Below, in pieces: positions 6,301-33,717 of a stretch of DNA of 64,000 nt. Origin of the DNA: Kiritimatiellaeota bacterium B1221 (lineage in GTDB: Bacteria > Verrucomicrobiota > Kiritimatiellia > SS1-B-03-39 > UBA6053). Each line of letters begins with the position of its first letter. Within the stretch, counting starts at the first letter, position 1. The notes below the pieces were generated by a model, which was given only the letters and a program-made list of their open reading frames with translations, had not been told where the DNA came from and did no database searches. The stretch lies in the NCBI GenBank assembly GCA_029269125.1, contig JARHXX010000011.1, positions 1-64,000 on the forward strand, written 5' to 3'. The translations under genes were made by a program, and so were the position numbers.

Positions 6301-7046
6301 ACGGCAGCCTGCTGGTCACGGGTTCTTTTTCTTCTATTGGGGGGCAAGCAAGAAGCGGATTCGTAAGAGCACTAAACCGTGCCCCCCTCTCCTCGCTCAC
6401 CCACGAAGACTCAGAACTTCGCTGGCAAGTGGGTGGGAGCTTCCCTGAGCTGTCAGAAGTTAATTTTGACATTTGGCAGGGAGACAGCTGGGTACCCTTA
6501 GGTGCACCAGAAAGAACAGCGGATGCTTGGAACCTTCAAACCCCTTCCCTATCAGCTGCAGGCTGGGTTCGAATTACCGGCCAATCCACCGCCGGTCCTA
6601 CGAACGGAGGTACGGGTCTTATTTCGATTCAAGAACCATTCGGAGGAGGAGGACCTGCAAATACATTCGCAGGCTGGTCCTTTAGGAAGGAGCTCCCCGT
6701 AAATCAACGCGATCCCTTTTATACATCAGGTCCGCTTGAAGTATCCAACCTGATGGCATTTGCCATGAATCTGGACCCCAGAACTGCGGGTCCATCTGAT
6801 ATGCCCAAAATAGCAGGCCTCTCCGAAACCCCAAATCGGGCATGGTTCAGATTCCGACGTAATACCAACGCTGCAGATGTCACCTTCAGTATACAATCAA
6901 AAGAAACGCTTCTGGATGACGAATGGCAAACGCACCCCATTTCAACTTACCGTGTCCATCAAACAGGCGATGGATGGGAAGTGATTGATATTGAAGTAAA
7001 CACTTCTGAGAAGGGCGATGGATTCTATCGCCTAAACTTAGAATAA
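348..7046 (+). CDS. Giant secreted delta-60-repeat protein (2232 aa). It has an N-terminal signal peptide and four repeated modules of about 550 aa, each made of a propeller-like DGKILVGGxF repeat block, a roughly 70-aa W-rich domain and an Ig-like domain.
   Basis: Long ORF with a hydrophobic N-terminus ([28 protein letters not shown]). The DGK(I/L)L(V/I)GGxF..VNG motifs recur dozens of times. A segment '..IDWIRxGSxPxxxxVxFxYWxxxxWxxxG' recurs four times. Confidence 0.9.
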
Positions 7047-15570: not shown

Positions 15571-17538
15571 ATGAATATCCTGCCCCGCAGAATTTCTCTG
15601 CTTTTCCCCTCCCTCATTGCCGTCTTCAGCTTCTCCTCTCCCCGTATTATCGGGGACAACTTTTCCACAATCCTGGGTGAATTAAATGACCACCTTAAAG
15701 GAAACCGGGAACAGTCGGCGGCAGAACTGAAAGCCGCGGCCACAGTGATCCGGAAGGAAGCGGAGGCATTGGCGGACAATCCCACGCATATTCAAAAAGC
15801 CCTTTATCTGATCGGCCTCTACGATGACACCTTCGGCCCTCTCTTCCTCAGCGAATCCACCCGGGGCGGCTTTCCGCGTCAACCCGCGGGCGGACTGGAA
15901 CTGGAACGGGTAATGTTTGCCCTGCAGCAGGGGCTCATCGACCACGCTTACACTTCACACAACCTTCAGCGTTACCCTTCGCTGTATGAAGGTGCCGTCT
16001 TTGAAACCTCGACCTATTTCCCCGGCAAAGTGATGCCACCCGAAGATCCCGATGTCGTCCACAAAGTGGCCGTCAATGCTTCACAACCCGCAGCCTGGGG
16101 CAGTCCGGTTTTGGGACACGACCAACCTGCGCGCCGCCCCACCGGATGTTATGTGGCGCCGGGGAGTATCGTCCGAATCATCGTCCCGCCGGCGCTCATC
16201 AACAAGGGCTATGCCATCCGGGTGGGTGCCCACTCATGGAACCTCGAAAAGAAAAAAACCATACAACGTCTGGACCGGGTCTCCATCGTCTACCCCATCA
16301 CCGAAAGGGAAACCCGGGTCACCCACCCTCTCGGGGGCGGCATCTATCTGGAAGTCCCCTACGAAGCCTCCGCCGGCATCGCCACCCTCTACTTTAAAAA
16401 TGTGGTCCGCGCCCCCTTCTTTTCCGCCCGCAGCTTCGCTCCCACTTCACTTGAAGAATGGAAAAATTCCGAGCGCCTACACCCGGCGCCCTGGGCGGAC
16501 TTTGAATCCGACAAATTTATGATGCAGGTCCCCAGCAACTGGATCTACGCCCTGGAAGATCCGGTTCGACTGATGCAGGACTGGGATCTGGCCATGGATG
16601 CGGTTACGGAATTATTCGGACTCCCCCCGCGACTTCCAAAATCAGTGCTGTATCTTCAGGTCGATATCACCATGCGCGGCAACGCCAATTATCCCGGATA
16701 CCCCCAATCCAATTATCCCTATAATCCACTCAAAGACGAAAAGGGAAAATCGAATCACTGGATGGTACGGGGGCCGCAGTACGCCGACTGGACGGTTTTC
16801 CACGAAGTCGGTCACGCCATGGCTTTTACCAAATTCCGGGGAGAAGTCGAAGCCGTGGTCAATTTGCCGACCGTCGCGGTACTGAACCGGAAGTTCAACG
16901 TCGACCTGAATACCGCCTTTGGCCGGTCCGTACTCAGGAAAGAGCAGATCTCATTGGATCAGGCGGCCATTCAGTGGATGATTACCGAAAATTTCCGGCA
17001 GGGAAACCCCATGAATATTTCCAACAAACCCGGGGATGAAGTAAAGTATCAACACCGCGGATATGCCAAGTATGTCGAAATCGTCAACCTTTTCGGCTGG
17101 GAGGCCCTCTCCCGCTTTTGGCATTCCGTGCATCTGGATTACATGAAAGGGGTGACTTATCCCCGAAACACAGATCCCACCGACAGTCGTATCCTGCGCA
17201 TGTCCAAGGCGGCCGGCGCCGATCTCACCCCGCTGATTCATTTCTGGGGCGTCCAGCCCGAATCGCCGGAAACCCTGGCCAAAGAAATGCGCAAAGCGGG
17301 TTTACGTCCCTCCGAAGCCATCCATAAACGTCTGCGGCATTACCAGACCCTCATTCCCATGGACAACGCCGCCTTTCGCGCCCACACCGAACTTATTTAC
17401 CCCAAAGGACTCGGCACCCCCAAAAATCTGCTCTACGGTGAAGGCTGGTATTCCGTCTGGTTGCCCCAATACACCGCCGCCCACGGAGAGGCCGCCCAAG
17501 TCGCCCTGCAGAAAATCATCGACCGCTATTTTCCTTAA
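15571..17538 (+). CDS. Secreted zinc metallopeptidase-like protein (HEXXH motif HEVGH; possibly M60/enhancin-like)
   Basis: Signal peptide (MNILPRRISLLFPSLIAVFSFSSP). WTVFHEVGHAMAF with a downstream Glu. 655 aa. Confidence 0.6.
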   Translation: MNILPRRISLLFPSLIAVFSFSSPRIIGDNFSTILGELNDHLKGNREQSAAELKAAATVIRKEAEALADNPTHIQKALYLIGLYDDTFGPLFLSESTRGGFPRQPAGGLELERVMFALQQGLIDHAYTSHNLQRYPSLYEGAVFETSTYFPGKVMPPEDPDVVHKVAVNASQPAAWGSPVLGHDQPARRPTGCYVAPGSIVRIIVPPALINKGYAIRVGAHSWNLEKKKTIQRLDRVSIVYPITERETRVTHPLGGGIYLEVPYEASAGIATLYFKNVVRAPFFSARSFAPTSLEEWKNSERLHPAPWADFESDKFMMQVPSNWIYALEDPVRLMQDWDLAMDAVTELFGLPPRLPKSVLYLQVDITMRGNANYPGYPQSNYPYNPLKDEKGKSNHWMVRGPQYADWTVFHEVGHAMAFTKFRGEVEAVVNLPTVAVLNRKFNVDLNTAFGRSVLRKEQISLDQAAIQWMITENFRQGNPMNISNKPGDEVKYQHRGYAKYVEIVNLFGWEALSRFWHSVHLDYMKGVTYPRNTDPTDSRILRMSKAAGADLTPLIHFWGVQPESPETLAKEMRKAGLRPSEAIHKRLRHYQTLIPMDNAAFRAHTELIYPKGLGTPKNLLYGEGWYSVWLPQYTAAHGEAAQVALQKIIDRYFP

Positions 17539-18145: not shown

Positions 18146-18661
18146 ATGGGGTCTATAGAACACACTGCAACTGTTAGAAAAAATAATCCTATGGACTCAC
18201 ACGAAGTAATCAAAAAGACCCTTTCCGGCGCCGGTGTTAAATCGGTGGCCGCGGACATGAATCTATCCCCCTCCCTCATCTACAAGTGGTGTGAAGCCAA
18301 AGGTGAGGACAATAGCGGCGCGGACAACCCTTTGGACCGCCTGCTGAACCTCTGTCAGGTCACAGGCAACCACAGTCCCATCGTTTGGCTCTGCGAGCAA
18401 ATGAACGCATTTTATGTGGAAAATGTGACCCCGGACATGCAGGAGGAGGAAATGGAAGTGCTGAAAATGACCCAGCGCATTCTTCGCGAGTTTTCCGATA
18501 TGCTGGATATGGTCGCCCAGTCCATGGCCAATGACAACGGCATCGACAAAAAGGAAGCCCGGGACATCCGTGCGGAATGGGAAGATCTCAAACGGGTGGC
18601 CGAACAATTTGTGTTAGGCTGCGAAATGGGCGTTTTCGCTCCGGAAACTGAAGTGAAATAA
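18146..18661 (+). CDS. Phage regulatory protein CII (CP76 family)-like HTH regulator
   Basis: The 171-aa segment SVAADMNLSPSLIYKWCEAKGEDNSGADNPLDRLLNLCQVTGNHSPIVWLCEQMN matches the LNPDQPHLLTLEELIALTKASGDSRILDGFLAELG architecture of 186-CII/CP76 proteins. This is a recalled alignment, not a computed one. Confidence 0.5.
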   Translation: MGSIEHTATVRKNNPMDSHEVIKKTLSGAGVKSVAADMNLSPSLIYKWCEAKGEDNSGADNPLDRLLNLCQVTGNHSPIVWLCEQMNAFYVENVTPDMQEEEMEVLKMTQRILREFSDMLDMVAQSMANDNGIDKKEARDIRAEWEDLKRVAEQFVLGCEMGVFAPETEVK

Positions 18662-18663
18662 CC

Positions 18664-19230
18664 ATGCCTATCCTCGAAAACATTCGAAAATTGGCCAGAG
18701 CGAACCTTTCTCAATGGTTAAACGAAAGCGAAACCCCGGAAACGGAAATTGAAGCCAAAATCCGCGAATTGGAAGACGGCGCGGTTCAGGCAAAGAATAC
18801 CCTGGCCCATTTTGTGGTGAGCTACAAACGTATGGAACAAAATATCCAGGATCTACAGGCAACGGCGGAGGATCAATCCACAAGGGCAGAAAAGGCCTTA
18901 CGCTCGGGAGACGAAGCATCCGCCCGCCGGGCACTTCACGCCAAAATCAAAGCGGCAAACCGTGCGGACAACCTCATGCCTGTCCTGGAAAGCCGCCGCG
19001 AAACCTACCATGAACTCCAGGAATCCCTGGTGGAAATTCATGCCCAACTGAATTTGGCCCGGGCCAAAATGATGGATGTCCGGGCTTCAGAAATTTGCTG
19101 CGAATCCCCTCTTGAGGCACCGGACGATGTACAAACCACCCCTTCAGGACCAACAGTACGTCATCAACAAATCGAAGCGGAACTGAAAAGCTTGCAACAA
19201 AAAATCACCGGGTCTACATCTGAGGAATGA
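18664..19230 (+). CDS. pspA: PspA/IM30 family protein (phage-shock protein A / Vipp1-like, ESCRT-III superfamily)
   Basis: 188-aa all-helical coiled-coil. Its N-terminus (ENIRKLARANLSQWLNESETPETEIEAKIRELEDGAVQAKNTLAHFVVSYKR) parallels E. coli PspA ([49 protein letters not shown]). The start is 3 nt after the upstream stop. Confidence 0.75.
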   Translation: MPILENIRKLARANLSQWLNESETPETEIEAKIRELEDGAVQAKNTLAHFVVSYKRMEQNIQDLQATAEDQSTRAEKALRSGDEASARRALHAKIKAANRADNLMPVLESRRETYHELQESLVEIHAQLNLARAKMMDVRASEICCESPLEAPDDVQTTPSGPTVRHQQIEAELKSLQQKITGSTSEE

Positions 19231-19862
19231 ATGAGATGAAGGAATTATTTGAAGCCAGCTTTAACGTCGTCAACCTACCGGCAACATTACTTTTAATCAT
19301 GATCCTTTTGCATTGGATCATCGTGATCATCGGGGCGATGGACATGATTTCCATTGATTCGGAACTGGATTTCGAACTGGATATGGACGGCGAAGGCGGC
19401 GGATTCGATAAAGGAGACTTTATTCTCGAATACTTTAATGCCAAATACATCCCTATCTCGATACTGATGAGTATTTTCGCCCTGAGTTTTTGGGCCATCA
19501 GCATGTATGCCAACTGGTATATCCACCAAAATGAAAATGGCTGGATGGGCTTGGCCATCTTTGCCGGCAACCTGATTGTCAGCGCCCACATCACTAAATT
19601 TGCCACCCAACCCCTCATCCCCATCTTTAAATCGATGCGGGAACAAATGTCCGACAACATGAACCTGGTGGGAAAAACCGTGATCGTCACCTCGTCAAAA
19701 GCCGATGCAAAATTCGGCCAGGGTCAGATTCGTTTGGACGGTCCTGAAATCACTTTAAACGTCCGCACCGCCGGGGAAGAACTTCCCCGCGGCACCGAGG
19801 CGGTCATTTTACAACACGAACCCGCAACCGATATTTACCTCATCACCCAATTGGAGATCTAA
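19227..19862 (+). CDS. YqiJ-like inner-membrane protein with a C-terminal NfeD-type OB-fold (flotillin partner)
   Basis: Two TM helices then a soluble C-terminus (GKTVIVTSSKADAKFGQGQIRLDGPEITLNVRT..). It overlaps the pspA stop by 4 nt and precedes the flotillin gene, as in E. coli yqiJK. Confidence 0.65.
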   Translation: MNEMKELFEASFNVVNLPATLLLIMILLHWIIVIIGAMDMISIDSELDFELDMDGEGGGFDKGDFILEYFNAKYIPISILMSIFALSFWAISMYANWYIHQNENGWMGLAIFAGNLIVSAHITKFATQPLIPIFKSMREQMSDNMNLVGKTVIVTSSKADAKFGQGQIRLDGPEITLNVRTAGEELPRGTEAVILQHEPATDIYLITQLEI

Positions 19863-19865
19863 GTC

Positions 19866-21848
19866 ATGGAAGGAATTATTTATGTCATTTTTATAGCCGT
19901 CGTCGCGATCGGCGCTGGCGTACTGTTCATGTTCGCCACCTGTTACAAGAAAGTGGAACAGGGAACCGCCATCATCCGTAACGGCATGGGCGGCACCAAA
20001 GTGAGTTTTGTCGGCATGCTGGTCTTCCCCATTTTCCATCGGCGCGAACTGATGGACATCTCGGTGAAACGGGTGGAAATCGACCGGACCGGTACGGTGG
20101 GCGAAGGCCTGATCTGTAGGGACAATCTCCGGGCGGATGTAAAAGTCGCTTTCTTCGTGCGGGTAAACAAAACCCCGCAGGATGTTTTGAAAGTTGCCCA
20201 GTCTCTGGGTTGTAAACGCGGCTCCGATCCGCAGGGCCTCATCGAATTCTTCGACGCCAAATTTTCCGAAGGCTTAAAAACCGTGGGCAAACAGTTCGAC
20301 TTTGTCGACCTCTACACCAACCGGGAATTGTTCAAAGAAGAAATTCTGAAAGTCATCGGCACCGACCTGAACGGTTACATCCTCGACGATGCCGCCATCG
20401 ACTATTTGGAACAGACTTCTTTATCTGCCCTGGATCCGAAAAACATTTTGGATGCCGAAGGTATCAAAAAGATAACCGAACTGACCGCGGCCCAAAATAT
20501 TCTCTCCAACGACATCAGCCGTAACGAAGAGAAGACCATCAAGAAACAGGACGTGGAAGCCCGGGAAGCCATTCTGGAACTGGAACGTCAACAGGCTGAC
20601 GCGGAACAAAAACAACTCCGCGAAATAGCTGAAATCACCGCCCGTGAAGAGGCCCAGTCCAAAGTGGTGCAGGAAGAAGAGCGCCTGCGCTCGGAAAAAG
20701 TCCGGATCAAAACCGCAGAAGAAGTCGCGGTGGCCGAAGAAAATCGTGAGCGCCAAATCATCGTCGCCCTGAAAAACAAAGAACGGACCGAAGCGGTGGA
20801 AGTGGAACGGGTGGAACGGGACCGCGGACTGGAACGGGTCGAACGCGAACGCCTGGTGACCCTGAAAGACATCGACAAAGAAAAAGCGGTCGAAGTCGAA
20901 AAGAAAAATATTCAGGAAGTCATCCGCGAACGGGTTTCCGTGGAACGCACCGTGGTGGAAGAAGAAGAAAAAATCAAAGACACCAAAGAATTTGCCACTG
21001 CAGAACGTGCACGTCAGGTGGCCGAAACCCATGCAGAGGAAGAAGGCCGCGCCCTGAAAATCAAAGCGGTGCTGGATGCCGAAGCGCAACGCGACTCCGC
21101 CAAGCACATTGCCGAAGAACGGGTCATCAACGCCCAGGCCGAACGGGACGCCAGCGAACGCGAAGCCGACGCCCGCAAAATCCTCGCCGACGCCAAAGCG
21201 CAGGAAGAGGCGGTCATCGGTATGGGGGAAGCCCGCGTGCTCGAAGCCAAAGCCGAAGCCACCGAGAAATTCGGCCGGGCCGAAGCCACCGTCATCGGCG
21301 AAAAGGCCTTTGCAGAAGCGGACGGTATCGAGAAGAAAGCCGAAGCCATGAAACTGTTCGACGGCGTGGGCCGCGAACACGAAGAATTCAAACTCCAGCT
21401 CAACAAAGATCTGGAACTGCAATTGGCCTCCGTCAACGTGCAGCGTGACATCGCCAAAGAACAGGCATCCCTCATCGGGGAAGCCCTCAAGTCCGCCAAC
21501 ATCGATATCGTCGGTGGCGACAGCGACTTCTTCGACAAGATCGTGAACTCGGTCAGTAAAGGCAAAGCCCTGGACAGCTTCATGAACAACAGTGCACTGG
21601 CCACCGACGTCGCCAACACCCTGTTCTCCGGAGACCCCGAAGCTTTCACCAATCAGCTGCGCACCTTTGCCGGACGCTTCGGTATGAGCAGTGAGGATCT
21701 GAAGAATATCACCGTCTCCGCACTGCTCACCAAGATGACGGCCCAGGCGGACGACAACGATACTCTCGAAACCCTCGGCCGCCTGAGCGAAGTTTCCAAA
21801 CAGTTGGGAATCGGTGCCAAGCAGGTCACGGACTTGATGCAGAAGTAA
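19866..21848 (+). CDS. Flotillin family protein (SPFH/band-7 domain with a long E/A/R-rich coiled-coil; YqiK/FloT-like)
   Basis: 660 aa. N-terminal TM segment, SPFH core, and a long EA-rich flotillin repeat region. Confidence 0.9.
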   Translation: MEGIIYVIFIAVVAIGAGVLFMFATCYKKVEQGTAIIRNGMGGTKVSFVGMLVFPIFHRRELMDISVKRVEIDRTGTVGEGLICRDNLRADVKVAFFVRVNKTPQDVLKVAQSLGCKRGSDPQGLIEFFDAKFSEGLKTVGKQFDFVDLYTNRELFKEEILKVIGTDLNGYILDDAAIDYLEQTSLSALDPKNILDAEGIKKITELTAAQNILSNDISRNEEKTIKKQDVEAREAILELERQQADAEQKQLREIAEITAREEAQSKVVQEEERLRSEKVRIKTAEEVAVAEENRERQIIVALKNKERTEAVEVERVERDRGLERVERERLVTLKDIDKEKAVEVEKKNIQEVIRERVSVERTVVEEEEKIKDTKEFATAERARQVAETHAEEEGRALKIKAVLDAEAQRDSAKHIAEERVINAQAERDASEREADARKILADAKAQEEAVIGMGEARVLEAKAEATEKFGRAEATVIGEKAFAEADGIEKKAEAMKLFDGVGREHEEFKLQLNKDLELQLASVNVQRDIAKEQASLIGEALKSANIDIVGGDSDFFDKIVNSVSKGKALDSFMNNSALATDVANTLFSGDPEAFTNQLRTFAGRFGMSSEDLKNITVSALLTKMTAQADDNDTLETLGRLSEVSKQLGIGAKQVTDLMQK

Positions 21849-21924: not shown

Positions 21925-24900
21925 ATGAAATCTGACTCAGAAAAACCTGAAGCCCCTGCGAAATTATCCGGCGGCGCCTACGAAATTATCCGCCGCCGTC
22001 TCCACGAACACGGTGACGGGTTGCGTGAGCGCATCCATCAACTCAACGCGGAACGACAAAAAGTCTTCGGGGGCGTCGAGCCAAAGCTGGTCGGCACCGA
22101 GCGGGTTCTCACCGCCAACAACTGTGTCCCCCGGGACATGGTGGCCCTGGGGGATCGTTTTCTGTTTGGCTACAATGTGCAGCTGGGCCTCAAAACCGAA
22201 ATGGATCCCAAGGATGTGTTTGCGGTGTTCACTCTGGATGATCACGGGCTGACGGAAATCCCCCTTCCGTCGGTTTTAGATGAGCGCTTTCTGAGAGACT
22301 TCAAAGAACTGTACACCTTCTACCGCGATACCCGATTTGCCAAATTTGCCCAGATCGGTCCGCATTTGTACATGGTCTTCCGGGTCGGCAAAGAAATCGA
22401 AAATATCAAAACCTTTAAGTGGCTCCTGAATGACGACGGTTCGATGACCTATATCGACAACCGCAGTGACCACGAATATAAATATCCGCCCCAACACGAA
22501 TTCGAATGGGTCAACGCCACCCGGGATATGCACCGCAACGGCGCTTTCCCGCACATCTCTTTTGAAGACCGCATTTTTGTGGAAACCACCGGGGGAGACC
22601 TCACCATCAAGATCGACGACAACACGGAAACCGGAGAAGGCATTTACGCGGAACCGGTCGACGATCCTGATCAGACGCTCGATGATGCTGCCTTTGCGTT
22701 TGCCTCGGTCGGCAATCTCATTTTGATGCGCATTCTCCCCTATCGGGAAGAGACGCCCCGCTATCTGGTTTACAGCGAAAAAGTCCGGCAGGCCCGGCGC
22801 ATGGATGCCATTGCCGGTGCCTGCGTGCTGTTGCCCGAAGACCACGGCATCATTTTCTCCAACGGATATTATTTGCAGACCGGCGAATTCAAGGAATTCG
22901 ATTCCGGTCTGAAAAACATGATGTTTGAACGGCGGATCTCCTCTCCTAACGGCGAAGATTCGATGTACGTTTTTTACAAGCGTGACAGCGGGTCCTACGT
23001 ACTGCTTTCCTACAATATCATCACCCAAAAAGTGGAAACCCCGATTGAGTGCAGCGGATTTTGTTTATTCAGCAGCGGACGCCTGATGTACTTCAAGGCC
23101 CAGGAAGAACCCACCAAATCCCACATCGTGCAAATCTGGCAAACCCCTTATGCCGAAACCGTGGAAGGGGCAGGAGAAGCCGCGGACAGCATGTTGTTTA
23201 AAATCGGCAACCGCGATGTGGTCCGCTGCATGGCCGGATGCGGTACCCTCATGGGCTTGTTGAACCGTGAAGATTCCTACGCCAATTTGTATGTGGACAT
23301 CGTCCGCCAATCCACCGATTTGCTGGACAGCTATTTTTGGATCCGCGAGGAGGAGGCCTTTAACCTCGGCAAACCCTTGGAAGAAATCCGCAACGCCGCC
23401 TCTTCCGCCATTGCCGAATATGAAAAAGTGGTGCAGCTCCGGCATGCCGCCGAAGCCCAGCTGAAAGAAACCGACGCGGAAACCAAAGATCTTTTAAATC
23501 AGATCCGCCTGCAACGTCAGGATGAAATTCAGGGATACGTGCAAGCGCTCGGTTCCCTGCGTGCACTGCGCGGAAAAGTCATCACCCTGAAAGATGTCCG
23601 CTACATGGATCTCGAAGCCGTGGAGGGTTTGGAAGAAACCGTAAAAGAACAAACCGATCAGCAGGCCAGGCGCTGCGTCGATTTTTTACTCGGGGATAAA
23701 GCCCTCGCCCCCTACGAAAAACGCATCTCCAAACTGGAACCCCGCATTCCGGATCTCAAAACCGTGCGCGATGGTGAATCCATGCGCGAAGAGGTGGAAG
23801 GTATCTCCGGCGAACTGGAAATGCTGATTGAAATTGTCAGCAATCTCAGCATCGACGACGCCACCCACCGCACCCAGATCATCGACGGGATTTCAGCATT
23901 GTTCAGCACCCTCAATCAGGTGCGGGCCGCCCTGCAAAACCGCATTAAGAAAATGGCGGTTCAGGAAGGCGAAGCCGAATTCGCTTCGCAAATGAAATTG
24001 TTGAACCAGGCGGTCATCAATTATCTGGATGTCTGCGACAGCCCTGAAAAATGTGAGCAGTCTTTGGGCCGGGTGATGATTCAACTCGAGGAACTGGAAG
24101 GCAAGTTTGCGGATTATGACGAGTACGTGCTGAAGCTCGGAGAAAAGCGCGAAGAGGTTTATAACGCTTTTGAGACCCGCCGCCTCTCTCTGGTGGAAGC
24201 GCGAAACAAACGGGCCGACACCCTGCTGCGCTCCGCGGAACGAATCTTAGGGTCGGTTAAAAACCGGGTCGGCACTTTAAAATCCGTGGAGGACATCAAC
24301 GGATATTTTGCCTCCGATATGATGATTGAAAAACTGCGCGGTATCATTGATCAGTTGACCGAAATGGATGATCCGGTGAAGGCCGGAGATATTGAAACCC
24401 AACTGAAGAGTGCACGCGAAGATGCAGTGCGGCAATTACATGACCGCTCGGAACTTTTTGTCGACGGTGAAAATGTCATTCAGTTTGGACGTCACAAGTT
24501 CTCGGTAAATACTCAGGAGCTGGATCTCACCATCGTACCCCGCGGCGACGACATGATGCTGCATCTCACCGGCACCGCCTTTTTCGAAACCATTAGTGAC
24601 CCGGCATTTTTGGCCACCCGTCCGGTGTGGAGTCAGGAACTGATTTCCGAAAACGATGAAGTCGCCCGTATCGAATATTTAGCTTACGGTTTCGTGCAAC
24701 AACTGGGAGACACTGAAATCCCTGAAGATCTCTCCACTGCCATGCGGGAATTCATGGCGCCACGGTATGCGGAAGGATACCAGAAAGGTGTTCACGATGA
24801 AGACGCGGTCAAAATCGTCCGCGCACTTTTGGAAATGCGGGACCAGTTGGGCACCCTGCGCACCCCCGCCTCGGTTCGGGCATTGGCGGTGGTGTTCTGG

Positions 24901-27168
24901 CAGGATTTCCGCAGACGCGCTGAAGCCGAAATTATGATCGCCCGCCTCAAAGGCGTGGGCGCGTCCAACCAGGTTTTCCGCCAGTCCCGTCGACAAGCGG
25001 ATGCGATTTCGGATATGGCAAAGGACTTAAAAAAATTTGCGGAACAGAGCGCGTCTTTTGATCCACGCGCCGCCGAAAGTGCCGCGACCTACCTCTTCGA
25101 TGTGGTCGCCAACGGCATTCAAGCACCTATCAGTGCCGAGGGCGGAAAACTGATCACCCGCTTTTTAGAACAACTACAAAAACTGGGGTCCAGGAAAAAT
25201 TTTGATGCCGCCTGTGAATCTTTACGTGAAAATGCGGAAGCTCGATTCGGCCTGGTTCGTGAATGGCTGCAAGGCTATCTGGAAAATACCAAATCTGAAA
25301 GTGCATCCACCGTGCTCGACGAAGCCGCGGCCTGGTTATCCTCCGGTCTTTTTGATGCAGGCAATGTCTCCGACTTGAGCGAATATGTACAGTTGGAAGG
25401 ACTGCGCTCCTCTCATGCCCGCATTGAAAACGGCGTCATGAATTTGCAGTACAGCGAATTCATGTGGCGTCTGGAACGATTTGCCACCGAAACCGTTCCC
25501 CGCTTTGAAGCCTTTGAGCGAATGAAAAAAGAATTCGTGGAACAAAGCCGCAAAGGCATGCGTCTTGACGAATTCAAACCGCGGGTGCTCACTTCCTTTG
25601 TGCGGAATAAATTGATCGACCGGGTGTACCTGCCCATCGTGGGTGACAACCTTGCCAAACAAATCGGAGTGGTGGGGAAAAATACCCGCACCGATCGCAG
25701 TGGCATGCTCATGCTGATCTCCCCTCCCGGTTACGGGAAGACCACATTAATGGAGTACATTGCCAACCGTCTCGGCGTGGTGTTTATGAAAATCAATGGT
25801 CCAGCCATCGGACATTTGGTTACCTCATTGGATCCGGAAGAAGCGCCCAATGCCGCGGCAAGGGAAGAACTGAACAAACTGGGCTTGGCGTTGGAGATGG
25901 GTGACAACGTGATGTTGTACTTGGATGATATCCAGCACTGTAATCCAGAGTTCCTGCAGAAATTTATTTCTTTGTGTGACGCCCAGCGGAAAATTGAAGG
26001 TGTCTACAAAGGTGTGAGTAAAACCTACGACCTTCGCGGGAAAAAAGTTTCGGTGGTGATGGCCGGAAATCCTTATACCGAAAGCGGCGAAAAATTCCGC
26101 ATTCCCGACATGCTTGCCAACCGGGCGGACACCTACAATCTTGGCGATATTCTGGGAGACAACGGCGCCGACTTCGAACTCAGTTTTCTTGAAAATGCGC
26201 TCACCTCCAATCCCTCTCTCAACCGCCTCGCTTCCGGGGTTCGGAAAGACGTGCACACGATCATCCGGGCTGCGGAAAACGGGCAGACCGAAGGGGTGGA
26301 ACTGGCCGGACGCTACACTGCCGAAGAAGTCACGGAAATGCTTTCAGTGATGCGCAAGATGATCACCGTCCGCGATGTGTTACTCAAAGTGAATGAAGAA
26401 TATATTCGCTCCGCCGGTCAGGCCGATGAATATCGTACGGAGCCCGCATTTAAACTTCAGGGTTCCTACCGGAACATGGCCCGTCTGTCCGAAAAAGTGG
26501 AAGCGGTGATGAATGATCGCGAGCTGCAGACTTTGATTGTTTCAGATTACGAAAACGAAGCGCAGACCCTCACTACCGGAGCGGAAGCCAACCTTTTAAA
26601 ATTTAAAGAACTCATCGGTATCCAAACGCAAACGGAAAAAGAACGCTGGGCAGAAATCAAAAAAGGGTTCTCACGCAATCAGGTAATGAAAGGCGTGGGC
26701 GGCGACGACCGGGTCGGTCAGGCCGTGGCTCAGCTTTCGGTGATGGGCGAAGGACTCAAAGATATTCGTCAGGTGCTCAAAGACGGGGTGGGATCCAAAT
26801 CCGCCGGCCCCGTGATGACCGGGTTCACTCCCGAGACTTTGGATCAGATCGGCAAGTGGATGGAAAAACCCAAGACGCGGAAAGGCCCTATCCAAGCCGG
26901 ACTGAGCAAAGAGACGCTGGATCAAATCGCGGAATTGATCGCCAAGATTCAACCCTCACAGGTGGTCGCCCCCTCCCCTGCGCCGGAACCAAACAGCGGA
27001 CTCACCCCTGCCCTGGCAAAAATGCTGGAACAACAATTTGAAAGATTGCAGGAGTGCATCCAAGGCGGACCCCATCAGCCCGAGAAAATTCTGGAAAGAC
27101 TCGAGAGGGCAAAAAGGGTTTACAGTGAACTCATGAATCAAGTCGGTTACGGAGGCGGGCATGAATAG
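21925..27168 (+). CDS. Giant 1747-aa protein with an N-terminal domain of unknown function, a central coiled-coil region of about 600 aa and a C-terminal AAA+ ATPase (Walker A LISPPGYGKTT around aa 1265, Walker B VMLYLDDIQH around aa 1330, sensor-1 VVMAGNPY)
   Basis: Motifs read directly at about 25717-25746 (P-loop) and 25915-25935 (Walker B, DD-type as in the AAA_5/MoxR/dynein-like clade). The ORF is uninterrupted and its start is 77 nt after the flotillin stop. Confidence 0.85.
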   Translation: MKSDSEKPEAPAKLSGGAYEIIRRRLHEHGDGLRERIHQLNAERQKVFGGVEPKLVGTERVLTANNCVPRDMVALGDRFLFGYNVQLGLKTEMDPKDVFAVFTLDDHGLTEIPLPSVLDERFLRDFKELYTFYRDTRFAKFAQIGPHLYMVFRVGKEIENIKTFKWLLNDDGSMTYIDNRSDHEYKYPPQHEFEWVNATRDMHRNGAFPHISFEDRIFVETTGGDLTIKIDDNTETGEGIYAEPVDDPDQTLDDAAFAFASVGNLILMRILPYREETPRYLVYSEKVRQARRMDAIAGACVLLPEDHGIIFSNGYYLQTGEFKEFDSGLKNMMFERRISSPNGEDSMYVFYKRDSGSYVLLSYNIITQKVETPIECSGFCLFSSGRLMYFKAQEEPTKSHIVQIWQTPYAETVEGAGEAADSMLFKIGNRDVVRCMAGCGTLMGLLNREDSYANLYVDIVRQSTDLLDSYFWIREEEAFNLGKPLEEIRNAASSAIAEYEKVVQLRHAAEAQLKETDAETKDLLNQIRLQRQDEIQGYVQALGSLRALRGKVITLKDVRYMDLEAVEGLEETVKEQTDQQARRCVDFLLGDKALAPYEKRISKLEPRIPDLKTVRDGESMREEVEGISGELEMLIEIVSNLSIDDATHRTQIIDGISALFSTLNQVRAALQNRIKKMAVQEGEAEFASQMKLLNQAVINYLDVCDSPEKCEQSLGRVMIQLEELEGKFADYDEYVLKLGEKREEVYNAFETRRLSLVEARNKRADTLLRSAERILGSVKNRVGTLKSVEDINGYFASDMMIEKLRGIIDQLTEMDDPVKAGDIETQLKSAREDAVRQLHDRSELFVDGENVIQFGRHKFSVNTQELDLTIVPRGDDMMLHLTGTAFFETISDPAFLATRPVWSQELISENDEVARIEYLAYGFVQQLGDTEIPEDLSTAMREFMAPRYAEGYQKGVHDEDAVKIVRALLEMRDQLGTLRTPASVRALAVVFWQDFRRRAEAEIMIARLKGVGASNQVFRQSRRQADAISDMAKDLKKFAEQSASFDPRAAESAATYLFDVVANGIQAPISAEGGKLITRFLEQLQKLGSRKNFDAACESLRENAEARFGLVREWLQGYLENTKSESASTVLDEAAAWLSSGLFDAGNVSDLSEYVQLEGLRSSHARIENGVMNLQYSEFMWRLERFATETVPRFEAFERMKKEFVEQSRKGMRLDEFKPRVLTSFVRNKLIDRVYLPIVGDNLAKQIGVVGKNTRTDRSGMLMLISPPGYGKTTLMEYIANRLGVVFMKINGPAIGHLVTSLDPEEAPNAAAREELNKLGLALEMGDNVMLYLDDIQHCNPEFLQKFISLCDAQRKIEGVYKGVSKTYDLRGKKVSVVMAGNPYTESGEKFRIPDMLANRADTYNLGDILGDNGADFELSFLENALTSNPSLNRLASGVRKDVHTIIRAAENGQTEGVELAGRYTAEEVTEMLSVMRKMITVRDVLLKVNEEYIRSAGQADEYRTEPAFKLQGSYRNMARLSEKVEAVMNDRELQTLIVSDYENEAQTLTTGAEANLLKFKELIGIQTQTEKERWAEIKKGFSRNQVMKGVGGDDRVGQAVAQLSVMGEGLKDIRQVLKDGVGSKSAGPVMTGFTPETLDQIGKWMEKPKTRKGPIQAGLSKETLDQIAELIAKIQPSQVVAPSPAPEPNSGLTPALAKMLEQQFERLQECIQGGPHQPEKILERLERAKRVYSELMNQVGYGGGHE

Positions 27169-27169
27169 C

Positions 27170-27335
27170 GCGACGCCCGAGTCCCGCATTTATGCGGAAG
27201 TTTTCCGACCCCGTTTACGGGGAAGTCTCGAAAAGAGCAAGGCCTCAACTTCACACGATACCGGAAGTATCTGCGTGAGCAACATCGTAAACGATGTCGC
27301 AGACTTCCGCATAAATGCGGGACTCGGGCGCAGAG
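27170..27335. promoter_or_regulatory. Array of four related 14-bp palindromes (CCGCAT-TT-ATGCGG, CCCCGT-TT-ACGGGG, CATCGT-AA-ACGATG, CCGCAT-AA-ATGCGG). The outer two are embedded in a perfect 28-bp long-range inverted repeat (27172-27201 vs 27303-27331).
   Basis: Read directly between the AAA-gene stop (27168) and the MKPKK start (27345). The half-site consensus is C-N-N-C-R-T. Confidence 0.7.
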
Positions 27336-27344
27336 GGAACTCAA

Positions 27345-27710
27345 ATGAAACCTAAGAAAACAGAATCCTCCGACCTCCTGACCCTCAGCAATCAACTGTT
27401 GGCGGAAGTGAACCGTGAACTGGATGCCCGCTTTATGGATTTACCTGAAGACGTCCGCGCGTTGCTGGTACAAAAAGGCGCGCTCACCCAAACCGTGATT
27501 CGCGAACTCACCCGCCTCATCGAACTGGCCGCCGACAAAGCCAAAAAGCACGAAGACCTGCTCGATCACTGCGCCGAATGGCAACGCGAATTTTTCATTC
27601 CGCTCAAAGCCCAGAGCGACGGAGAAAAACTCGACCAGGAAATATACCTCAAGGATCTCGAACAGATGATCGAAGAGGTGGGACGGGTTTTGGCAGAGCG
27701 GGATGCTTGA
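27345..27710 (+). CDS. Small helical protein (about 121 aa), probable last gene of the PspA-flotillin-AAA module
   Basis: The ORF at 27315..27710 starts inside the IR element. The internal Met at MKPKK (27345) is preceded by an agaggg SD-like sequence. Confidence 0.55.
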   Translation: MKPKKTESSDLLTLSNQLLAEVNRELDARFMDLPEDVRALLVQKGALTQTVIRELTRLIELAADKAKKHEDLLDHCAEWQREFFIPLKAQSDGEKLDQEIYLKDLEQMIEEVGRVLAERDA

Positions 27711-29888: not shown

Positions 29889-32800
29889 TTAAGATTTCAG
29901 GAGAGAACTTCCCAATTCCTCCCGCCGCTCAAGCAGGGGTGCACGGAGAATTCCGGAGGGTTGAAACTGCCAGATTTCATTCCGTTCCGCAGGGGTTCCG
30001 TACCAGGAGTCCGGCCCCCACCACACCCAGTCAGGGCGATGATTGTGCAGGGGCCCGAAGCTGTTGTATCGATTCCCGTAAGCGCAAATACACACAGTAT
30101 GGACACCTGCATCCAACGCTCCCAACTCCACCCGCCAAGGAGCACTGATAACCGGTCCGCAATCCCGGCCTTCACAGAATACGCGAAGAAGGGCTCCTCC
30201 AAAACGGGCACATTGCAGAGCGTAATATCCGCTTTCAGACACCTCTATTCGAAATTCATACTCCAGATTTCCTCCATAAAACGGCAATCCCTGCGGCACG
30301 ACATCCCCCCAGAAAATGCCCGCTCCGGATGGAATCAGTTTTGCATGCGCCCCCCGGGTTTCCACGGCAAAATTTCCGATCAAATAGCACCATTCCAAGT
30401 GGCGGTCGACTGCATTGAGCGAGAGCGTAATCTCCAAATGATGGCTCCCCTCCTTTAATTCCGGAAGTTTCATCGTAGGCAAATCCCGGTCCACCCACCA
30501 ACCATCCGGATTCACTTCGAGGGCTTTGCCATCCAATCGCAGTGAAGCGGATTTTAATCTTTCGCAGACCAGTTTGATCTCACGAAAATCTCCAACGCAA
30601 TTGATTTCAAATCGACGGGTCACCTGCTGGGGATCTCCGGGATCCTTCACAGAGTACGGTTGCCCCCAATCCGGCCAGCTAAACTTTTCCGCCAATTTCC
30701 GTTGGGTAACCAAACTGTCCTCAGGTGCTTGCCACGCCTCGTCGTTTAATTTCCACGCGGCGCGGTCGAGCAGATACACATTCGGTTCTGCGGGCGATAC
30801 CGTATCCGGTTCCGGACAAACGCCCTGTATTTCCCAGGAAAATTTCGGCAAGACCGCGGATCCTTCACCCGGGGTGAGACGCAACAACCGGTGACTCTGC
30901 GGATAAAGATCCCAGGGCACCTCCGTCCAGCCATTTGCCTGATGGTAAGAACAGGCCTCTTCAGATCCATCCGCAGTATTCAGCTCTTTCACGATCCAGC
31001 AGCCCCGAATGCGGATACAACCATTCATCAATTCCGGATTTCGCCAGGGATGGGTATTACTTTTTTCTTCCGCACGATTCGCACAAAAAAGAATACGTTC
31101 CTCCCCGCATTGCCGGAGCTGTGTATTCACCTGCTTAAAAAGTGAACGGTGACAAGTCAGAATCGAGATTTCCCGCCAAGGTTCCAACGCCTGCACCAAG
31201 GAAACCGTATCCGAATGAATGAGGGTTGCACCGGCCAACATGCGGGCAGGCAGGTCACTTTTTTCACCATTGCACCGTTCAGGAATCCCCCCCATCACCA
31301 CCACCTCTCCCCCTCGATCAATAAAGCGCTGCAAGCTCAGTAAAGTGCTTTCACGAAGCGTCTCCAGTTCAGGAATCACCACCACCTGATACGCCATCTC
31401 GCCCACCTGCAATTCAGGTTGTTCGGTAGATCGCTCCTGCCGGGGTAACAAAGATTCCGCAATGAAATCAAAATCCAAACCAGCATCCAGCAGGCCCGCC
31501 ACCCCTTGAGAAAATTGATGGCTCAGCTTGGACATGTAAGGGTCATCCAGCATATTGATGCCCCTGCGCATCCACGCGGATTCCACCGAATGTATCACCC
31601 CGATCCGTACCAGTGCCTTCCCTTCCGTCATCGCGGCCGCCACCCTTGCAAAATGATCTTCAATCACCGGGTATTCTTTATACCAAGGCGACTGCGGCCC
31701 AATGCTCGCAGGAAAATCCCGCTTACTCTGACCTTCCATGCTCAGCCAGGAAAGATGATGCACCCGCAAAGTAATTCCCAATGCCGCCTGCCAATCTCCC
31801 TGACGTTTATGTCCGGAAAACGGAAAATCCCAATTGGTGACCCCATACAATTCACTCATCACGGCCGCACGTCCATCCTGCCGGGCCACGCTCACCGCCT
31901 GTTTAGCGGTTACAGGTTTGTAGACATCACAAAGGATATCAATGCCTGGAATTTGAAAACTGCGGTAATGTCGCATGCACTCTCCAATACAGGCAACCTG
32001 TCCCGAGAGACTGTCTTCCGCCATCATGTGCCCCGTTAAGGCGATGCCATGTTTTTCACACCAGCCCCCCAACCCATCCGCAAATGCGGAGGCAAAGCGC
32101 TCTGAAATATGATCACAGTAACGCCAACGCCATGGACTGGGTCCCTCAATACCCGGCCAAACCACTTCGGGAAGAATATCTAAAAGTTCAACCTGATAGG
32201 CGTTCTCAAAACTTTCTCTGAGATCATCTGTCCAGGCCAGCTGCATTTGTCCTTCAAAGGAAGTATGCAAAGTACTGTTTCCCGCCAATTGGGGCTCATC
32301 GGTAAAGATCGCCGGCACATCTTTGGGAAAACTGCCGCCGAATTGTTTTAAATAGACCTCATGGGTGCTGTCGATGAAGGCCTGTACAGCGGCCGGATCC
32401 AGATTGTTTAAATACGCCGCCCCGTTGAAACGATCGCTGTCACCTTCAATCACCCGGGTCAAAAACCAATCCATGTCCTCCGCTTCGTCAAAGGAAATAC
32501 GCTGATGACCTTCTCTGAGTCCCTGCCTGTTCAACTCGATACGGTAGGCACAGAGTGGTTGCCTGCATTCATTTTTCACCTCATCCGGCCTTCCCTTGCG
32601 CAACTCCACCCAGCGGCGCCGATGGGTGAGTTCACGGGTCACCGCGCCCCCGGCAAATCCGGAAGGCCAGGTGTCTTCGTCGTAAAGGTAACTCAGCATG
32701 CCTTTAGAGGCACCATAGTCGCGGGCAGCCGAAACCGCCTCGAGAAAATCTTTTTCCAAGTACGGATTTTTTAATCCGCAACGGACATGCAAATGATATC

Positions 32801-32939
32801 CGCCAATCCCCATCTCTTCGAACGCATCAATATAATCCCGAAGCCGGTCGTGATCAGTCAAATCGTGATTAAGAGACCAAAAAGGCGCCCCCCGCAATTC
32901 AGCGGGGGGATTTTGAAAGCGGACGGAATCGAAGGACAT
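29889..32939 (-). CDS. Large putative glycoside hydrolase (1016 aa; family not assignable by eye)
   Basis: The N-terminal GAPFWSLNHDLTD motif and TIM-barrel-like acid-rich segments are typical of bacterial GH catalytic domains. No signal peptide is evident. Confidence 0.45.
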   Translation of the reverse strand: MSFDSVRFQNPPAELRGAPFWSLNHDLTDHDRLRDYIDAFEEMGIGGYHLHVRCGLKNPYLEKDFLEAVSAARDYGASKGMLSYLYDEDTWPSGFAGGAVTRELTHRRRWVELRKGRPDEVKNECRQPLCAYRIELNRQGLREGHQRISFDEAEDMDWFLTRVIEGDSDRFNGAAYLNNLDPAAVQAFIDSTHEVYLKQFGGSFPKDVPAIFTDEPQLAGNSTLHTSFEGQMQLAWTDDLRESFENAYQVELLDILPEVVWPGIEGPSPWRWRYCDHISERFASAFADGLGGWCEKHGIALTGHMMAEDSLSGQVACIGECMRHYRSFQIPGIDILCDVYKPVTAKQAVSVARQDGRAAVMSELYGVTNWDFPFSGHKRQGDWQAALGITLRVHHLSWLSMEGQSKRDFPASIGPQSPWYKEYPVIEDHFARVAAAMTEGKALVRIGVIHSVESAWMRRGINMLDDPYMSKLSHQFSQGVAGLLDAGLDFDFIAESLLPRQERSTEQPELQVGEMAYQVVVIPELETLRESTLLSLQRFIDRGGEVVVMGGIPERCNGEKSDLPARMLAGATLIHSDTVSLVQALEPWREISILTCHRSLFKQVNTQLRQCGEERILFCANRAEEKSNTHPWRNPELMNGCIRIRGCWIVKELNTADGSEEACSYHQANGWTEVPWDLYPQSHRLLRLTPGEGSAVLPKFSWEIQGVCPEPDTVSPAEPNVYLLDRAAWKLNDEAWQAPEDSLVTQRKLAEKFSWPDWGQPYSVKDPGDPQQVTRRFEINCVGDFREIKLVCERLKSASLRLDGKALEVNPDGWWVDRDLPTMKLPELKEGSHHLEITLSLNAVDRHLEWCYLIGNFAVETRGAHAKLIPSGAGIFWGDVVPQGLPFYGGNLEYEFRIEVSESGYYALQCARFGGALLRVFCEGRDCGPVISAPWRVELGALDAGVHTVCICAYGNRYNSFGPLHNHRPDWVWWGPDSWYGTPAERNEIWQFQPSGILRAPLLERREELGSSLLKS

Positions 32940-33033: not shown

Positions 33034-33717
33034 TCAGGGAATGGGCCAGAAATAGTGGGCACCTTTGGCCGTATAAAAGACTTCCAGATTATCCACGGAC
33101 ACCCACCCGGCATGTCCGTCCATATACGCCGCATTCATTCCACTCAAAGCGTCACTCACTGCCGGTTCATTGTGGGCAAGGGAAATCCCGCCAGAGGTTC
33201 TCAGTGTCAGGCACCCCCAAACAGCCGTCCCGGCGGGATAACTTTCGCTGCGGCTCAAGTCCGGTTTGTCCGTTTGGTAGCTACCCTGAAACGGCTCTCC
33301 GAAATTAAAATACTGATAGGTGATAAAATCCGTATCATATAACTGATCGGTATGTCCCGCATTCCGCTCGCGATGCAATTTCCCCGGACAGAACATACTG
33401 TGAGCCCGATCCCCCAGCCGCTCACCAAACAACGGGTCATAATTTGAAAGAGCATGGGGATAATTTCCAATCCGCTGCGCCGGAGGTAAACGGCCCTGAT
33501 GTTCAGTCGCCCAGCCCAGAGTTGCGGTCTGAATCTGACGCAGATTATTCAGACAGCGGGTGCGGGCACCTTTTTCCATGGCACGAAAGCCTGCGGGCGC
33601 AATCAGGGAAATCAACAGTACCAGAATCGCGATCACCACCAACATTTCAATCAGAGTGAATCCCGCCCGGAGACGATTTCCGCCACCCGTAGGTGTTTCT
33701 GTAGCCGGTGCCCGCAT
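33034..33717 (-). CDS. Prepilin-type N-terminal cleavage/methylation domain protein with a C-terminal H-X9-DG motif
   Basis: GFTLIEMLVVIAILVLLISLIAP N-terminal pseudopilin signature. MDGHAGWVSVDNLE near the C-terminus. Confidence 0.9.
   Translation of the reverse strand: MRAPATETPTGGGNRLRAGFTLIEMLVVIAILVLLISLIAPAGFRAMEKGARTRCLNNLRQIQTATLGWATEHQGRLPPAQRIGNYPHALSNYDPLFGERLGDRAHSMFCPGKLHRERNAGHTDQLYDTDFITYQYFNFGEPFQGSYQTDKPDLSRSESYPAGTAVWGCLTLRTSGGISLAHNEPAVSDALSGMNAAYMDGHAGWVSVDNLEVFYTAKGAHYFWPIP

Follow-up and report, generated by a model that had tools for sequence, protein, structure and literature searches.

The stretch of DNA analysed here, referred to as the window, comprises positions 1 to 64,000 of contig JARHXX010000011.1 (assembly GCA_029269125.1) from Kiritimatiellaeota bacterium B1221. 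It harbors the gene of a giant AAA+ ATPase, the subject of this study, which closes a gene cluster as its last large member. Four tightly packed genes on the same strand precede it and code, in this order, for a phage-CII-like helix-turn-helix (HTH) protein, PspA, an NfeD/YqiJ-like protein and a flotillin-like protein. An earlier note, made from the sequence alone, had drawn attention to the domain layout of the ATPase but missed this NfeD-flotillin(-PspA) context, which is the main clue to the function of the enzyme. The genes of the cluster are listed below (aa, amino acids; TM, transmembrane).

18146..18661, plus strand: phage-CII-like HTH protein, 171 aa (Pfam Phage_CP76, PF06892, E 8.7e-9, 124 of 146 profile positions)
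18664..19230, plus strand: short PspA/IM30 protein of the ESCRT-III superfamily, 188 aa (Pfam PF04012, E 5.3e-14)
19227..19862, plus strand: NfeD/YqiJ/YuaF-like membrane protein, 211 aa, with two to three TM helices and a C-terminal NfeD OB-type domain (Pfam NfeD)
19866..21848, plus strand: divergent protein of flotillin/YqiK type, 660 aa (assigned by database names, architecture and a weak profile match)
21925..27168, plus strand: giant AAA+ ATPase, 1747 aa, without TM segment (MDF3129348.1, database name 'DNA repair ATPase')
27345..27710, plus strand: small gene following the ATPase gene, about 121 aa (counterpart in strain B12222 with 88% identity)

The ATPase gene is a single reading frame, uninterrupted from ATG to stop codon, and the database entry, labelled 'DNA repair ATPase [Kiritimatiellaeota bacterium B1221]', holds the identical protein. 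By its profile matches, the protein belongs to a Pfam-defined, uncharacterised family which combines DUF3686, DUF7902 and a C-terminal AAA+ module. DUF3686 (PF12458) was matched at aa 33-471 with full profile coverage (E 4.5e-182) and DUF7902 (PF25472) at aa 592-675 (E 1.3e-26); the region aa 1258-1386 gave weak matches to Pfam P-loop families. At E<=1e-5, a word-indexed search of 5.8 billion proteins brought up over 6000 relatives. The 120 top-ranking ones are full-length, mostly 1600-1950 aa long and 51-92% identical at 89-100% query coverage, and they carry the same Pfam set in collinear order. Conservation is continuous along the chain and reaches its maximum in the ATPase module, where blocks of 50 aa are 83-88% identical to the query.

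Because the homologues are full-length and the conservation is continuous, the open reading frame represents a genuine gene rather than a fusion artefact. A joining of a DUF3686 protein and a separate AAA+ protein by annotation or assembly could be suspected from the many database matches to the N-terminal domain that are short (180-1200 aa). These are metagenome fragments, however, and 65 of the 150 listed representatives are at least 1500 aa long and contain the same invariant C-terminal motifs. Complete genomes with the full-length protein include those of B12222, Symmachiella dynata, Gimesia and Pontiella, and conservation is unbroken across the domain junctions. Thus, full-length homologues, complete genomes, continuous conservation and shared motifs refute an artefact, which we regard as practically excluded. 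The earlier note had named two findings that would overturn its view, a fusion of two genes and a full-length match to a characterised family. Full-length collinear homologues number in the thousands and occur in at least seven phyla, and the family matched is named in Pfam but uncharacterised.

The order of domains was established from Pfam, Foldseek and two AlphaFold2 models made with 86-sequence alignments, one covering aa 1-1200 (mean predicted local distance difference test score, pLDDT, 83) and one covering aa 1121-1747 (mean pLDDT 76). All domains are encoded on the plus strand.

aa 18-410 (21976..23154, plus strand): N-terminal helix (18-48) and beta-rich domain (54-406), core of Pfam DUF3686 (Pfam, AlphaFold2, Foldseek)
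aa 423-845 (23191..24459, plus strand): elongated helical region including Pfam DUF7902 at aa 592-675 (AlphaFold2)
aa 851-890 (24475..24594, plus strand): small beta-sheet domain (AlphaFold2 strands 851-889, confidence low in part)
aa 915-1140 (24667..25344, plus strand): compact all-helical domain (AlphaFold2, pLDDT about 85-95)
aa 1154-1212 (25384..25560, plus strand): beta-hairpin, then a long helix linking to the ATPase (AlphaFold2)
aa 1225-1405 (25597..26139, plus strand): AAA+ alpha/beta core (motifs, AlphaFold2)
aa 1406-1595 (26140..26709, plus strand): enlarged helical lid with the invariant LQGSYRNM (AlphaFold2, pLDDT mostly 80-96, lower at the start)
aa 1596-1747 (26710..27165, plus strand): poorly conserved, partly disordered tail (19-25% identity with gaps, low pLDDT)

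This layout agrees with the earlier description of the ATPase as a C-terminal module behind a large globular region of roughly 450 aa, which corresponds to DUF3686 at aa 33-471. The model of this region is beta-rich, with about 28 strands and pLDDT mostly 85-93. Foldseek matched it to the Kelch propeller of KLHDC3, to WD40 propellers, to the clathrin terminal domain and to prolyl oligopeptidase propellers, with probabilities up to 1.0 and E values of 1e-5 to 1e-3, and also to IFT-A and nucleoporin chains, in which propellers are followed by helical regions. Since the structure matches are propellers, the predicted fold identifies DUF3686 as a distant beta-propeller, and the strand count would be compatible with seven blades. 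This assignment agrees with the "beta-propeller repeats" that Ravi et al. described in the DUF3686/DUF7902 ATPase family (PMC11237479), with the difference that in the protein studied here the propeller lies ahead of the helical region and not after it.

The central part had been taken for a very long heptad-rich region. Long helices were indeed found at aa 423-845, where more than a dozen helices are predicted and several of them have 40-58 residues. In Fourier analysis, the hydrophobic periods of the helical parts are 3.4-3.9 residues, as in ordinary amphipathic helices, and no heptad signal dominates. A single long coiled coil was therefore dropped, since AlphaFold2 also shows distinct beta and helical domains, and the center of the protein is best described as a chain of domains. 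Of its structured parts, the compact helical domain at aa 915-1140 is the least conserved (mean identity 24% among representatives of 50%-identity clusters). The C-terminal tail contains two [ST]xETLDQI repeats, read from the sequence, and two terminal helices.

The features of the AAA+ superfamily are all present in the C-terminal module, namely Walker A and B, sensor-1, a candidate arginine finger, the alpha/beta core and the helical lid. The motifs reported earlier (Walker A, Walker B and VVMAGNPY) were located as follows, together with further elements.

aa 1269-1274: Walker A, GYGKTT (within ISPPGYGKTT, aa 1265-1274)
aa 1334 and 1335: D1334 and D1335 of the Walker B LDD (within MLYLDDIQH, aa 1330-1338)
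aa 1356-1369: pre-sensor-1 beta-hairpin (strands 1356-1361 and 1364-1369) between alpha3 and beta4 (AlphaFold2)
aa 1382: sensor-1 N1382, within MAGNPYTE (VVMAGNPY, aa 1377-1384)
aa 1400: arginine-finger candidate R1400, within PDMLANRAD
aa 1516: sensor-2-like R1516, within LQGSYRNM in the lid region

For an alignment, 65 full-length sequences were taken, each representing a cluster at 50% identity; within the propeller they share 30-56% identity with the query. Apart from one aberrant sequence, all of them retain SPPGYGKTT, the DD Walker B, MAGNPYTE, PDMLANRAD and LQGSYRNM. Judging from the conserved Walker A, DD Walker B, sensor-1 asparagine, R1400 and R1516, the giant ATPase is probably an active enzyme. 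R1400 is the likely arginine finger. The sensor-2 motif of MoxR proteins is GxSPR, and by its likeness to this motif R1516 may act as the sensor-2 residue. Two further elements are nearly invariant, the pre-sensor-1 hairpin and the loop at aa 1292-1309, for which AlphaFold2 predicts no hairpin of the helix-2-insert type. In MoxR-type rings these two elements face the pore, and their near-invariance implies a conserved substrate.

The clade of the motor was examined by profiles and by structure. Among the weak P-loop matches, only AAA_5 covers nearly the whole domain and exceeds its gathering score (27.4 bits against 22, profile positions 2-126 of 139); AAA_22 (27.1) and AAA (25.4) score close to it, the latter aligned over the P-loop only. 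In the structural comparison of the AAA module, the highest scores were obtained with CbbQ (12.6), NorQ (11.1) and McrB (9.1, 8.9 and 8.5), and the next clade reached at most 8.4. Together with the modelled hairpin, these results support an AAA_5, MoxR/McrB-type fold, that is, a member of the pre-sensor-1 insert superclade. The hairpin excludes the classical clade, including Vps4 and p97, and neither an MIT domain nor Vps4_C was found in the protein. Sequence searches against the PDB, run both with the protein alone and with a profile built from 86 sequences, yielded P-loop-level matches to p97 and RuvB, confined to the neighbourhood of Walker A, and no family assignment. The assignment to the AAA_5/dynein-MoxR clade made in the earlier note is thus borne out, with the exception of one of its arguments. 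The Walker B of MoxR, McrB and dynein AAA1 is DE, and the DD, invariant in the aligned sequences, appears as a peculiarity of the present family and not as a hallmark of AAA_5.

The layout is unlike that of Clp, Lon, FtsH and stand-alone MoxR, as had been stated. MoxR proteins are stand-alone rings of about 300 aa, usually paired with a VWA adaptor. In contrast to members such as CbbQ, NorQ and RavA, the module of the giant ATPase is preceded by about 1220 aa of additional domains, shows the invariant DD in place of DE, lacks a recognisable VWA partner and possesses a greatly enlarged lid, the latter read from the secondary-structure output of AlphaFold2, which does not give the orientation of the lid that a pre-sensor-2 insert would change. 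McrB, the GTP-dependent AAA+ motor of McrBC restriction, is far smaller; the giant ATPase has no McrC-like partner among the cluster proteins scanned, no DNA-binding domain and no defence signature, and its conserved neighbours are membrane proteins. Dynein and midasin are likewise giant AAA_5 proteins with helical extensions, but the giant ATPase has one AAA+ module per chain instead of six concatenated ones and no stalk inserted in the ring.

The distribution of the family is broad. A search with the N-terminal 480 aa against 1.84 billion cluster representatives gave 722 matches at E<=1e-3 and 261 at E<=1e-30 (50%-identity clusters); the full-length representatives listed have about 1500-2040 aa, and nearly all carry DUF3686 at the N-terminus. 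Relatives were detected in at least 524 genomes in a scan of one genome per species, and they belong to Kiritimatiellota, Planctomycetota, Verrucomicrobiota, many Bacteroidota, Desulfobacterota, Omnitrophota and Firmicutes. The loci used for synteny cover the same seven phyla. Counts for the flotillin-like and NfeD-like genes refer to fetched loci with enough sequence (69 and 66, respectively), and those for PspA and CesT to 80 scanned genomes.

In 66 of 69 loci the gene immediately preceding that of the ATPase, in the same orientation, codes for a flotillin-like protein, with 40-91% identity (48-59% in most cases). An upstream NfeD-like gene of the same orientation is present in 58 of 66 loci. 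A PspA gene adjoins the ATPase gene in 27 of the 80 genomes, and in 22 loci, of which the identifiable ones belong to Bacteroidota, pspA is preceded by the gene of a CesT_Tir_1 chaperone. In strain B12222 the same five genes occur with different flanks, and the ATPases are 87% identical. In Symmachiella (Planctomycetota) the cluster consists of just three genes, those of the NfeD-like protein, the flotillin-like protein and the ATPase. Orthology to the genes of the Bacteroidota operon is clear, with 48-54% identity for the flotillin-like and 20-33% for the NfeD-like protein. Both the identity of the ATPase and the conserved synteny are nearly certain.

In some loci, additional genes are inserted between the flotillin-like and the ATPase genes. 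Two Bacteroidota loci (L019, 5844-7744, and L046, 7039-7943) contain one or two small genes at this place with weak matches to DUF6779, DUF3592 or DUF6141, and in a Desulfococcaceae locus (L009, 7258-7926) an AbiEii-type nucleotidyltransferase toxin gene was found, probably an incidental toxin-antitoxin insertion.

The conserved neighbourhood bears directly on the database name. The labels 'DNA repair ATPase' or 'ATPase involved in DNA repair', used by NCBI and Pfam, suggest a RuvB-like or SMC-like motor acting on DNA; weak P-loop-only matches to RuvB were indeed obtained, and a uvrA gene lies about 12 kb away within the window. The RuvB matches, however, span some 50 residues around Walker A and score 21.9 bits against a curated cut-off of 282. 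No DNA-binding, nuclease or helicase domain was detected in the ATPase with Pfam and NCBIfam, and the conserved neighbours in 66 of 69 loci are membrane proteins and not repair genes. The uvrA gene stands outside the conserved neighbourhood, as the flanks already differ in B12222, and no support for the name was found in the literature. A role in DNA repair is therefore very improbable.

A motor of an McrB-like or other anti-phage or abortive-infection system, with the membrane proteins as effectors, would fit the McrB-like fold, the CII-like gene and the one AbiEii insertion. A PADLOC scan of the five cluster proteins gave no meaningful match, only P-loop-level IetA matches with E>1e-3, and no McrC-like nuclease partner was found among them. 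With about 50% identity of ATPase and flotillin across phyla and a stable gene order, the cluster is unlike fast-evolving defence islands, and its surroundings in the window are of housekeeping type, including pyruvate carboxylase, UvrA and SppA. Defence was rejected as leading idea after the PADLOC result; we consider it improbable, though less so than DNA repair.

The operon type itself is known. Ravi et al. published it in mSystems in 2024 by comparative genomics (PspA-flotillin-YqiJ-AAA+) and proposed a PspA-linked role in membrane dynamics (PMC11237479), and the family was already catalogued in Pfam under DUF3686 and DUF7902. Neither the layout, which the earlier note had presented as unusual, nor the operon type is therefore novel. 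The B1221 cluster shares the PspA gene with the published operon, whose exact Bacteroidota form was recovered in L019 and L046. Abbreviated versions without PspA, also noted by Ravi et al. (PMC11237479), correspond to the NfeD-flotillin-AAA form in Planctomycetota. In contrast to the published form, B1221 and B12222 carry the phage-CII-like HTH gene before pspA in place of the CesT/Tir chaperone gene, the PspA of B1221 is short (188 aa), and a small lineage-specific gene follows the ATPase gene. What the B1221 locus adds is thus a new family member with a minor operon variant.

The HTH protein, a candidate regulator not mentioned in the published description, is likely a dedicated regulator of the cluster. 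This is suggested by four Verrucomicrobiota loci (L034, L035, L053 and L057), in which a Phage_CP76 HTH homologue is transcribed divergently from the NfeD-flotillin-AAA genes. In B1221 the HTH gene ends 2 nucleotides (nt) ahead of the pspA start.

The three remaining partner proteins differ in how clearly they are recognised by profiles. Apart from its Pfam match, the PspA protein gave an NCBIfam phageshock_pspA match with E 2.5e-14, which is under the cut-off of that model. The NfeD match of the 211-aa protein (E 6.8e-4) is under the gathering score; its hydrophobic segments are located at aa 17-35 and 75-93. The flotillin-like gene product is named 'flotillin family protein' by NCBI and 'YqiK' by JGI. 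It shows one N-terminal TM segment (aa 4-22) followed by lysines, an SPFH-like region and a long helical region rich in E, K, R and A, and a profile of 24 orthologues gave a weak match to the SPFH protein QmcA (8z5g, E 0.003). With this topology, the bulk of the flotillin-like protein is predicted to be cytoplasmic. Since the ATPase has no hydrophobic segment able to span the membrane, the two would share the same compartment.

On this basis, we slightly favour the view that the giant ATPase is a cytoplasmic MoxR-type motor which remodels flotillin and/or PspA assemblies. It would be the energy-consuming subunit of a conserved membrane-associated module, whose invariant partners would be the divergent flotillin, as an SPFH-type scaffold with one N-terminal TM anchor, and the NfeD/YqiJ-type membrane protein. 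PspA, the bacterial ESCRT-III, would join the module in about a third of the lineages, including B1221. The C-terminal MoxR/McrB-type AAA+ domain would oligomerise, probably into a hexameric ring, and the propeller, carried by its long helical arm, would attach to assemblies of flotillin and/or PspA from the cytoplasmic side of the membrane, possibly in contact with NfeD as well. ATP turnover may then remodel the flotillin/PspA polymers during envelope stress, in the direction of assembly, turnover or disassembly. The CII-like HTH protein would probably regulate the cluster.

A pairing of SPFH proteins with AAA+ enzymes has a precedent in HflK/C-FtsH, and the pairing of SPFH with NfeD proteins is also precedented (PMC2636767). 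HflK/C-FtsH and the prohibitin-m-AAA protease resemble the module in combining an SPFH scaffold with an AAA+ enzyme, a pairing that recurs, as does that of SPFH proteins with NfeD partners (PMC2636767). Differences exist in the enzyme and in the side of the membrane. FtsH is a membrane-anchored protease of the classical clade and is enclosed by a periplasm-facing cage, whereas the giant ATPase is soluble, has no protease domain and belongs to the MoxR clade, and the bulk of its flotillin partner is predicted to be cytoplasmic.

Several points weigh against a motor acting on flotillin or PspA. The flotillin-like protein had no Pfam match even at E<=10, Band_7 and Flot included, and a phmmer search of the PDB with it gave nothing. 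Its assignment draws on the source annotation, the architecture and the weak QmcA profile match, and we regard it as tentative. Most loci of Planctomycetota and Verrucomicrobiota lack PspA, which hence cannot be a universal substrate. Gene adjacency is no proof of physical interaction. MoxR-type ATPases typically work with a VWA partner, and no VWA/MIDAS match was obtained in the cluster proteins or in the neighbours sampled elsewhere. With DD in place of DE in its Walker B, the enzyme might hydrolyse nucleotides slowly or act in the manner of a switch. Confidence in the AAA model is moderate (mean pLDDT 76), and it is low around beta1 and the P-loop entry. In the literature, no paper mentioning DUF3686 and no experimental work on the giant ATPase or its operon was found; a preprint on a flotillin-associated rhodopsin proved to be irrelevant.

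A related but different role would be that of a MoxR-type maturation chaperone for a specific membrane complex, inserting or extracting a cofactor or subunit of an unlinked client, in the way that CbbQ serves Rubisco and NorQ serves nitric oxide reductase, with flotillin and NfeD acting as a mere platform and not as substrates. The best structural matches, CbbQ and NorQ, would be in line with it, and the beta-propeller on its helical arm could serve as a client-binding adaptor. On the other hand, no conserved client enzyme or VWA adaptor gene lies nearby; only flotillin, NfeD and sometimes PspA or CesT recur. Moreover, the flotillin partner matches the ATPase in its degree of conservation across phyla (about 50-59% identity), which fits direct co-evolution. 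We therefore consider such a chaperone possible but rather unlikely.

Within the remodelling of flotillin or PspA assemblies, a more specific role can be envisaged. Bacterial PspA/Vipp1 proteins are homologues of ESCRT-III, and to our knowledge it is not known how bacterial flotillin assemblies are built up and turned over. In archaea and eukaryotes, Vps4 pairs an AAA+ ATPase with an ESCRT-III-superfamily polymer, and the pairing with PspA in B1221 is a possible functional analogy. A review of 2025 states that a Vps4-like ATPase appears to be absent in bacteria (PMC7619361). The giant ATPase might be this missing counterpart, as a non-homologous motor of the MoxR clade which disassembles or recycles PspA and/or flotillin cages with the propeller-on-arm as recogniser, a suggestion that we make tentatively and hold to be on balance doubtful. 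More speculative still is a role of the N-terminal 1200 aa, comprising propeller and helices, as a coat-like membrane-binding element in the PVC (Planctomycetes-Verrucomicrobia-Chlamydiae) and Bacteroidota lineages, which is suggested by the best Foldseek matches, namely proteins of the IFT-A, nucleoporin and clathrin type.

The end of the cluster in B1221 shows a peculiarity. The product of the small gene at 27345..27710 had no family match, and the gene was seen only in Kiritimatiellota loci; it is a probable lineage-specific sixth gene of the cluster. Its counterpart in B12222 overlaps the stop codon of the ATPase gene (ATGA). In B1221, the ATPase stop codon is followed immediately by an inverted repeat with perfectly matching 28-nt arms (27174-27201 and 27303-27330) separated by 101 nt; no second copy occurs in the window. 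Because of the overlap in B12222, the element of about 157 nt (27174-27330) with its terminal inverted repeats looks like an insertion similar to a miniature inverted-repeat transposable element (MITE), which uncouples the ATPase gene from the downstream gene in B1221. A scan for promoters and terminators between 17400 and 28600 gave counts not above those of shuffled controls, and operon boundaries are not definable in this way.

Other genes in the window surround the cluster. The gene of an M60/enhancin-like metalloprotease (SslE/AcfD-related) lies at 15571-17538, about 600 nt upstream, and is outside the conserved unit because it is missing at that position in B12222. The gene at 348-7046 encodes a 2232-aa protein with 15 DUF5122 beta-propeller repeats and HYDIN/ASH-type Ig-like domains, by its appearance a giant repeat protein that is secreted or located at the surface, apparently unrelated to the ATPase cluster. 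Downstream, a reading frame of 1016 aa on the minus strand (29889-32939) had no Pfam match at E<=1e-4, and it adjoins a gene at 33034-33717 with a type IV pilin-like N-terminal methylation motif.

For the genes of this family, which number in the thousands, the name 'DNA repair ATPase' lacks support and is likely to mislead. A highly conserved giant ATPase that is found nearly always with flotillin and NfeD, and repeatedly with PspA, offers a definite and testable candidate for the machine that powers scaffold remodelling. If it were indeed the bacterial counterpart of Vps4, bacteria would have arrived independently at an energy-driven turnover of membrane-scaffold polymers.

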